Origin: a virus
Length of the DNA: 13,632 bases
UHGV virus genome: UHGV-1808101
Reading direction: 5' to 3' (one strand)
Below the pieces are notes generated by a model. That model saw only the letters and a list, made by a program, of their open reading frames with translations, made no database searches and was not told the DNA's origin. Position numbers and translations under genes: made by a program. How positions within the stretch are numbered: position 1 is the stretch's first letter; each line of letters begins with the position of its first letter. Positions 11,227 through 11,909 of the stretch are shown here, one piece after another.

Positions 11227-11735
11227 GAGAACTAAACCTCACCAAAGAACAGCACGATTGGCTGAATGGCTGGCTTGAACTGTGGGGCGCATGGGTTTAT
11301 TCAGGTCGTCTGGAAAAGCGCATGAGCAGCGTAATAGCGAAGTTCATGGAGAGCGTAGAGCCGGGAAGAGTTATGACAAGACCAATGTGTAATGATGATG
11401 ATGGAATGTTGATTTCTCAGGTCGTCGATTCCGTCATGTACATTGACAAGAAAGCCTTTGGCATCCTCCTCAGCTACTACGCTCATGGTTCATCTAAGAG
11501 AGCAATTGCATCCTACTATCACGCGACTGCAAAGCCACGCAAGATGTGTGGACGCGGTGGCGAGGGATGGAGAAAACCTTCACTGGCAACCTGTAGAAAC
11601 GAAATTGACGATATCCTGAAAGCGTCATTATTTGTTTTGTACCAACCAATGCAAAATGCTTTCAAAATGCGTAAACGTGTTGAGAAAGTTAAGCATGTTG
11701 CTGTTAAAAGCCTTGACATGCAATTAGCCATTTAG
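11217..11735 (+). CDS. Q: Late-gene antiterminator Q, QuuD/phage-82-type family, 172 aa
   Basis: GGGAGAAG upstream; N-terminal region (LELWGAWVYSG…RPMCNDDDGMLISQVVDS…LLSYYAHG) shares the signature recalled from E. coli prophage QuuD (…LERWGAWAANN…RPQCCDDDAMII…); lies between the nin genes and a candidate late promoter. Confidence 0.75.
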   Translation: MGIRELNLTKEQHDWLNGWLELWGAWVYSGRLEKRMSSVIAKFMESVEPGRVMTRPMCNDDDGMLISQVVDSVMYIDKKAFGILLSYYAHGSSKRAIASYYHATAKPRKMCGRGGEGWRKPSLATCRNEIDDILKASLFVLYQPMQNAFKMRKRVEKVKHVAVKSLDMQLAI

Positions 11736-11742
11736 CCATAAT
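11713..11742 (+). promoter_or_regulatory. Candidate late promoter pR' (-35 TTGACA, 18-bp spacer, -10 CATAAT) overlapping the Q 3' end
   Basis: Hexamers read from the sequence; placement at the end of Q mirrors lambdoid pR' architecture. Confidence 0.45.
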
Positions 11743-11752
11743 TAGAGGGTAA

Positions 11753-11795
11753 GCTGCCGTTAGTGACTCTTAAGTTGCAACGGTGGCTTTTTTTA
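11753..11795 (+). terminator. Candidate early terminator/pause hairpin downstream of the pR' candidate
   Basis: GCTGCCGTT…AACGGTGGC imperfect 9-bp stem (two G-U pairs) with a long loop, followed by a T7 run. Confidence 0.4.
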
Positions 11796-11873
11796 TTTGG
11801 GTCAGTCGTATAAAGGTCATTACGGAAGGCTGTTAACCTTCTTATCGTGGTTCGATTCCCGCTACCCGCTCCA
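11796..11873 (+). other. tRNA-like remnant (Asn-type anticodon arm, T-loop GGTTCGATTCC, 3' CCA) with defective stems
   Basis: GAAGG-CTGTTAA-CCTTC forms a 5-bp stem with a 7-nt loop carrying U33 and anticodon GUU; GGTTCGATTCC T-loop consensus; …CGCTCCA 3' end; but T stem and acceptor stem cannot pair canonically. Confidence 0.3.
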
Positions 11874-11885
11874 GATTTATTATCA

Positions 11886-11909
11886 GGCTCGCTTCGGCGG
11901 GCTTTTTTT
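11886..11909 (+). terminator. Rho-independent terminator (candidate tR')
   Basis: GGCTCGC-TTCG-GCGGGC stem with UUCG tetraloop followed by TTTTTTT. Confidence 0.55.

Follow-up and report, generated by a model that had tools for sequence, protein, structure and literature searches.

A probable phage 21-type late-gene switch with an Asn/Gly hybrid tRNA pseudogene in a lambdoid E. coli prophage

The DNA analyzed here is the viral genome UHGV-1808101, a stretch of 13,632 nucleotides referred to below as the window. Between the gene for the Q antiterminator and the first late-operon gene, which encodes a TerB-family protein, it carries a late promoter that overlaps the 3' end of Q, two intrinsic terminators and, between these terminators, a tRNA-like segment made of two parts of different origin. 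The coordinates of all features and the evidence on which they were placed are listed in Table 1.

Table 1 Features of the Q–late gene region of the window.
Feature	Position	Strand	Evidence
Q antiterminator gene, Q21 family, 172 aa	11217..11735	+	ORF list, phmmer, Pfam
P_R' -35 hexamer TTGACA	11713..11718	+	Same bases annotated as late promoter in Sf6
Candidate Q-binding element, two tandem 8-bp repeats AATTAGCC (11722-11729) / ATTTAGCC (11730-11737)	11722..11737	+	Register with phage 21
P_R' -10 hexamer CATAAT	11737..11742	+	Equals -12..-7 with the numbering of Shi et al. 2019 transferred
Predicted transcription start, +1	11749	+	Aligned subsite-2 C = 11736 = -13
Putative -10-like sigma-dependent pause element TAAGCT, +2..+7	11750..11755	+	Homology
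Late leader terminator tR', hairpin 11753-11787 and U7 11788-11794	11753..11794	+	Fold; Sf6 homology
Hybrid, 5' part: phage tRNA-Asn(GUU) 1-57, D and anticodon arms intact	11799..11855	+	100% identical to tRNA-Asn of JLK-2012 and Sf6
Hybrid, 3' part: phage tRNA-Gly(UCC) 58-75	11856..11873	+	100% identical to tRNA-Gly of JLK-2012
Second intrinsic terminator, stem 11886-11902 with UUCG loop, T7 11903-11909	11886..11909	+	Terminator scan and fold
First late-operon gene past the leader, TerB family (tciA in JLK-2012)	12042..12473	+	Pfam PF05099, E 3.9e-16; RefSeq/GenBank annotation

Several further RNA elements were found elsewhere in the window. On the minus strand, a lambda cIII thermoregulator RNA element (344-402, 88.5 bits) was consistent with a lambda-like early-left operon. 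Rfam matches on the plus strand between 8816 and 9014 comprised the c4-a1b1 targets (8816-8868), isrK (8829-8905) and the C4 antisense RNA (8931-9014), and two antirepressor genes (9067-9771 and 9840-10568) follow directly; this arrangement looks like P1/P7-type c4 antisense control of antirepressor expression within a lambdoid nin region. Two tandem copies of the STnc100 sRNA family (12700-12905 and 13183-13392, plus strand), with 141 and 166 bits against a gathering score of 47 in Rfam, were located within a gene-free gap of about 1 kb between a DUF3927 gene and a SASA esterase gene, where JLK-2012 has a single copy.

The Q protein matched the Q21 structures 6jnx and 6p18 with E-values of 4e-92 and 1.3e-91, respectively (phmmer), and was assigned to Pfam family PF06530 (E = 1.3e-25). 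Its first ~102 residues were near-identical to those of Q21, and the C-terminal DNA-binding part was diverged. The 3' end of the gene runs into a sequence of the form TTGACA-N18-CATAAT (11713-11742), as the preliminary description, made from the letters of the window alone, had pointed out; according to the ORF list, the stop codon TAG of Q (11733-11735) lies inside the spacer, between the -35 and -10 hexamers. Of the 12 hexamer positions, 11 agree with the sigma-70 consensus, and no other site in the 13.6-kb window reached 11 matches on either strand. After mononucleotide shuffling, 0.26 such sites per window occurred on average (23.5% of shuffles had at least one), and the shuffle statistics alone are compatible with a chance origin of the match. 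The identity of P_R' is settled because it is homologous to the annotated late promoter of Sf6 and phage 21. The homologous bases of Sf6 (AF547987) are annotated as a late promoter "nearly identical to phage 21 late promoter", together with an approximate qut site, a tRNA-Asn and a tRNA-Thr. TTGACA was kept in all Q21-type loci aligned, and a megablast search of phage genomes with the region returned 93 records. Position for position, the promoter at 11713-11742 is homologous to P_R' of phage 21, Sf6 and L, which makes it the late promoter, as had been proposed for it as a candidate.

The two tandem 8-bp repeats in the promoter have the register of their phage 21 counterpart, ATTGAGCA/AATGAGCA, which is also found in the phage 21-type prophage JLK-2012. 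JLK-2012 carries the phage 21 promoter exactly (TTGACATCATTGAGCAAATGAGCAACACT...), and its alignment to the window promoter was gapless from the repeats on. In the Q21 structures, a direct repeat in the -35/-10 spacer is occupied by two Q protomers; Q loads at a sigma-dependent pause, which is caused by a -10-like sequence in the initially transcribed stretch (10.1101/651190; PMC6606751). The Q21 repeat consists of TGAGCA twice, with C at -21 and -13 (PMC6606751, Shi et al. 2019). The window shares with the phage 21 cassette the Q family, the overlap of the Q 3' end with the promoter, the TTGACA hexamer, the two tandem 8-bp repeats and TAAGCT after the start. It differs in the repeats themselves, which contain TTAGCC instead of TGAGCA, in the -10 hexamer, which is CATAAT and not AACACT, and in the DNA-binding part of Q. 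For the Q subtype of L and Sf6, which is ~80% identical to Q21 with a divergent DNA-contacting C-terminal part, AATTATCC/ATTTAGCC has been put forward as Q-binding element in the genome paper of phage L (10.1101/2020.10.05.325894). The Q protein and repeats of the window fall into this Sf6/phage L specificity subtype, and we infer that Q binds to the repeats at 11722-11737. When the phage 21 numbering is transferred, the subsite-2 C at 11736 corresponds to -13, which would therefore put the transcription start at 11749. TAAGCT was identical in JLK-2012 (behind a phage 21-type promoter), in Sf6 and in the window. It also forms the mosaic boundary of the two Q/promoter subtypes, with pause element, hairpin and tRNA-Asn common from there on. 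TAAGCT is probably the exact pause hexamer, and pausing is predicted at +2 to +7.

An intrinsic terminator was present between P_R' and the late genes. The hairpin and T7 run that the preliminary description had placed at 11753..11795 were found as the stem and U7 of tR' (Table 1). This hairpin folded with -20.2 kcal/mol, a value that none of 200 shuffles reached (z = -4.5). The homologous bases of Sf6 are annotated as 'putative late mRNA leader terminator; similar to phage 21 late terminator; tR''. A simple terminator scan missed tR' because its loop-size rule was too strict, and the hairpin was folded directly. The second terminator, with its UUCG loop, likewise lies where it had first been described (-11.9 kcal/mol, z = -3.5). 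It was identical, and in the same position after an intact tRNA-Gly, in JLK-2012 and NMBU-W12E19; it is the native 3' flank of tRNA-Gly and of the tRNA array. Other Rfam matches nearby (TarB, isrB, rsmX and others) had E-values of 0.19-8 and scores far below gathering, and were rejected as chance matches on the terminator hairpin.

The tRNA-like segment between the two terminators spans 75 nt (11799-11873) and shows the anticodon loop CUGUUAA, the T-loop motif GGTTCGATTCC and a terminal CCA. These motifs, as well as T and acceptor stems that cannot pair, had been seen correctly in the preliminary description, which gave the length as 78 nt. That description had also suggested a comparison with a covariance model, in which the segment reached 32.6 bits against the Rfam tRNA family, above the gathering score of 29. 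In the Rfam alignment the D arm, the anticodon arm with its 7-nt loop CUGUUAA, the T-loop consensus GGUUCGAUUCC and the 3' CCA were all intact. For comparison, the phage tRNA-Asn and tRNA-Gly scored 55.3 and 55.4 bits, and the tRNA-Thr genes of JLK-2012 and Sf6 scored 49.0 and 61.5 bits, so that the intact phage tRNAs span 49-61.5 bits. Only 2 of 5 T-stem pairs and 3 of 7 acceptor-stem pairs, these being non-contiguous, could form in the segment, versus 5/5 and 6/7 in tRNA-Asn and 5/5 and 7/7 in tRNA-Gly. The z-scores of folding against shuffles were +0.70, -1.74 and -4.08 for the segment, tRNA-Asn and tRNA-Gly, respectively. ARAGORN reported no tRNA gene over the whole window, and RefSeq has nothing annotated at the segment in an E. 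coli carrier genome. Judged as a functional tRNA, the segment fails on the 7-bp acceptor stem, on the 5-bp T stem and on gene-finder scores. As to the intact relatives, the tRNA-Asn of JLK-2012 (locus excerpt 1549-1623) has a U4-U69 mismatch in its acceptor stem. ARAGORN missed the annotated tRNA-Thr of JLK-2012 (excerpt 1629-1704), which is the copy with 49 bits in Rfam, and missed tRNA-Thr also in UTME-3 and in DEC5B, where the gene is without RefSeq annotation.

The origin of the segment became apparent from comparison with JLK-2012 and several other E. coli prophages, in which the same hairpin is followed by tRNA-Asn(GUU), tRNA-Thr(UGU) and tRNA-Gly(UCC), then by the same UUCG terminator and tciA. 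Alignment of the window with JLK-2012 gave a single clean gap. The heptamer GGTTCGA occupies positions 51-57 of both 75-nt genes, tRNA-Asn and tRNA-Gly, and its two copies lie 159 bp apart in JLK-2012. Joining positions 1-57 of tRNA-Asn to positions 58-75 of tRNA-Gly reproduced the window sequence 11799-11873 exactly, with zero substitutions. The crossover falls within GGTTCGA at 11849-11855, where the neighboring base on the left is specific to tRNA-Asn and that on the right to tRNA-Gly. The tRNA-Gly part covers the rest of the T loop, the 3' strands of the T and acceptor stems, the discriminator and the CCA. The anticodon arm is intact and the T and acceptor stems cannot pair because the 5' strands come from tRNA-Asn and the 3' strands from tRNA-Gly. 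This reconstruction identifies the segment as a hybrid pseudogene produced by one in-register 159-bp deletion in a tandem tRNA array. The deletion removed the 3' end of tRNA-Asn, the whole of tRNA-Thr and the 5' three quarters of tRNA-Gly; its simplest mechanism would be slippage during replication, or recombination over the short homology of the T-loop repeats.

The preliminary description had favored a decayed phage tRNA, and in one respect this stands, as the segment does consist of what is left of phage tRNA genes, at the site immediately past Q at which lambdoid phages carry tRNAs. In the form of a single phage tRNA-Asn that decayed through accumulated point mutations, the proposal would account for the Asn-type anticodon arm and for the identity of the first 57 nt to phage tRNA-Asn. 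The exact reconstruction as an Asn/Gly hybrid makes it very improbable. Over its last 18 nt, the segment has exactly the sequence of phage tRNA-Gly and differs from tRNA-Asn at 10 of 18 positions in ungapped comparison, all past the heptamer; one deletion with zero substitutions suffices to give the sequence, and the 3' flank belongs to tRNA-Gly and not to tRNA-Asn. A tRNA fragment of the attP type, which would be a 3' fragment beside an integrase gene at the prophage end, was considered and rejected, as the segment is located past Q and ahead of the late genes, contains the 5' part of a tRNA and is explained by the array deletion.

The closest known cassettes include the late leaders of Shigella phage Sf6 and Salmonella phage L, with tRNA genes directly behind tR'; in promoter, repeats, terminator and the 57 nt that open tRNA-Asn, they were ~96% identical overall to the window. 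In both phages the tRNAs are intact (Asn and Thr in Sf6, Asn and Leu in L) and lysis genes follow them, whereas the window has one broken hybrid followed by the second terminator and the TerB-family gene. JLK-2012 shares the sequence of the terminator hairpin with the window; like related E. coli prophages, it has identical terminator, tRNA flanks, second terminator and tciA leader, and represents the undeleted form of the locus. Unlike the window, it retains all three tRNAs, has Q and repeats of phage 21 type, and ends its hairpin in a T6 run instead of T7. The same logic of a constitutive late promoter, a short terminated leader and Q-dependent read-through applies to lambda, with P_R', 6S RNA and tR', and to the ileZ-argN-argO slot of Stx phages such as 933W. 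Stx phages carry accessory tRNAs between Q and the late genes, as in the slot of the window. The Q family and the tRNA genes of lambda and Stx phages are, however, unrelated in sequence to those of the window, and the lambda leader is longer.

The hybrid and its flanks were found in 4 of 5426 complete E. coli genomes (SCU-104, LZSFT34, PM4-5 and EC100, from the USA and China), with SCU-104 matching the whole query at 100%, and in six IMG/VR contigs. The intact three-gene array was present in 13 of the same 5426 genomes. An exact-pattern scan for the junction in one genome per species gave no copy; the hybrid is therefore rare and absent from species representatives. In the literature collection searched, neither a description of this Asn/Gly hybrid nor anything relevant on JLK-2012 was present. 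These occurrences bear on the question of whether the hybrid could be an assembly or sequencing artefact in which repeated tRNA sequence was collapsed. Although all three tRNA genes do share the T-loop sequence, the common repeat of 7-10 nt is too short for assembly collapse, and the hybrid is present in four independent complete chromosomes besides the contigs, which makes an artefact the least credible of the explanations considered.

Over ~370 bases, from the hairpin to the start of tciA, the ten carriers were identical. Upstream of the hybrid, three contexts were distinguished, namely a Q and promoter of Sf6/L type as in the window, a Q and promoter of phage 21 type, and an HNH endonuclease gene between the promoter/leader and the hairpin. 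Each of the three is also known with the intact array. The T7 run of tR' failed as a marker of a single origin of the hybrid, as intact arrays with T7 occur too. A single origin followed by recombination and a recurrent deletion at the same heptamer both fit these sequences; with three upstream modules that each occur with the intact array as well, the deletion may have recurred independently. In two of the carriers, PM4-5 and EC100, TATGCT replaces TAAGCT as the pause element, and the annotation lists the TerB-family gene as a pseudogene, with an internal stop (locus excerpts, about 2995-3724). In LZSFT34 (excerpt 2200-3005) and UTME-3 (excerpt 84-605), the HNH endonuclease gene lies between the Q/P_R' module and the TAAGCT hairpin; it is preceded by its own promoter-proximal leader and terminator, and the TAAGCT hairpin is then a second, downstream terminator.

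Other rearrangements were seen in the same slot. In E. coli 2013C-4991, tRNA-Asn is reduced to its first ~25 nt behind tR' (excerpt 1550-1575), with unrelated DNA and a tRNA-Ile downstream. A second broken tRNA-like sequence comes next in this genome (excerpt 1849-1922); this one, with an Arg-type UCU anticodon loop, scored 19.7 bits in Rfam and had neither an ARAGORN call nor a RefSeq annotation. The slot pattern of 2013C-4991 was also found in 16 further listed genomes. The position behind Q seems to be a hot spot for rearrangements of tRNA genes.

We consider it highly probable that the region as a whole is the late-gene switch of a phage 21-type lambdoid E. coli prophage, with a non-functional Asn/Gly relic left by one deletion. 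The features of a Q21 cassette are present, namely a Q21-family gene overlapping P_R', two repeats in the spacer, a -10-like element and an intrinsic terminator. By analogy with this cassette, P_R' would be transcribed constitutively from ~11749, and contact of sigma with TAAGCT at +2 to +7 would pause the polymerase. In the absence of Q, transcription would terminate at tR' (11753-11794) and yield a leader of ~45 nt. Upon induction, Q bound to the two 8-bp repeats would load at the paused complex and render the polymerase resistant to termination, so that tR', the tRNA slot and the second terminator would be read through into the TerB-family gene and the other late genes. Such Q-dependent read-through is predicted from the homology of the elements. 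In relatives with an intact array, the tRNAs would be cut out of the late transcript.

As an alternative to a decayed tRNA, the preliminary description had offered that the segment is part of the Q-utilization site or of the early-terminated late leader. Its distance of ~50-125 nt from the predicted start might seem to suit such a role. The Q21-type binding and pause elements, however, map upstream, to 11722-11755, and the segment starts past the U-run of tR', which leaves it out of the terminated leader; moreover, relatives that keep the same promoter and terminator hold one to three intact tRNAs or other DNA in its place. This reading was dropped as having very little likelihood.

The hybrid is most likely an inert relic that is carried passively on the late transcript. 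Its perfect D and anticodon arms and a score just above the gathering threshold leave room for some residual tRNA-like activity. A stronger form of this idea is that it is a selected, functional tRNA-like RNA, for example a decoy for an anticodon nuclease or a processing signal in the late transcript. The perfect D arm and GUU anticodon arm, the Rfam score above threshold and the unchanged sequence in ten records behind three Q/promoter modules would be expected of such an RNA. Against this, the 100% identity extends into the non-coding flanks, which indicates recent common descent rather than purifying selection and leaves no variation in which covariation or compensatory change could appear. 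The hybrid also folds no better than shuffles and is rarer than the intact array (4 versus 13 genomes), and the other broken tRNAs found elsewhere in the slot suggest repeated accidental loss. We therefore regard a selected function as improbable. The complete identity of hybrid and flanks behind three modules would fit passive hitch-hiking, while falling short of proof of neutrality. Two more far-reaching readings are likewise improbable: a retained tRNA-like RNA that is made only on Q-antiterminated late transcripts and whose GUU arm titrates a host enzyme, either an anticodon nuclease or one that modifies tRNAs; and a hot spot of recurrent in-register deletion at the T-loop microhomology, by which phage tRNA arrays shrink and yield new hybrid tRNAs. 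As an inert relic, the hybrid is the product of an ordinary type of deletion in a cassette of a known kind.

The analysis places the late promoter, the candidate Q-binding repeats, the putative pause element and both terminators to the base, and accounts for a tRNA-like sequence that had no annotation, as a hybrid pseudogene of precisely defined origin. The lineage has lost the phage tRNA-Asn, tRNA-Thr and tRNA-Gly, and these tRNAs are therefore dispensable for its persistence as a prophage. That tRNA genes are repeatedly lost and rearranged between Q and the late operon is relevant to Q/P_R' typing of E. coli prophages, including Stx phages.
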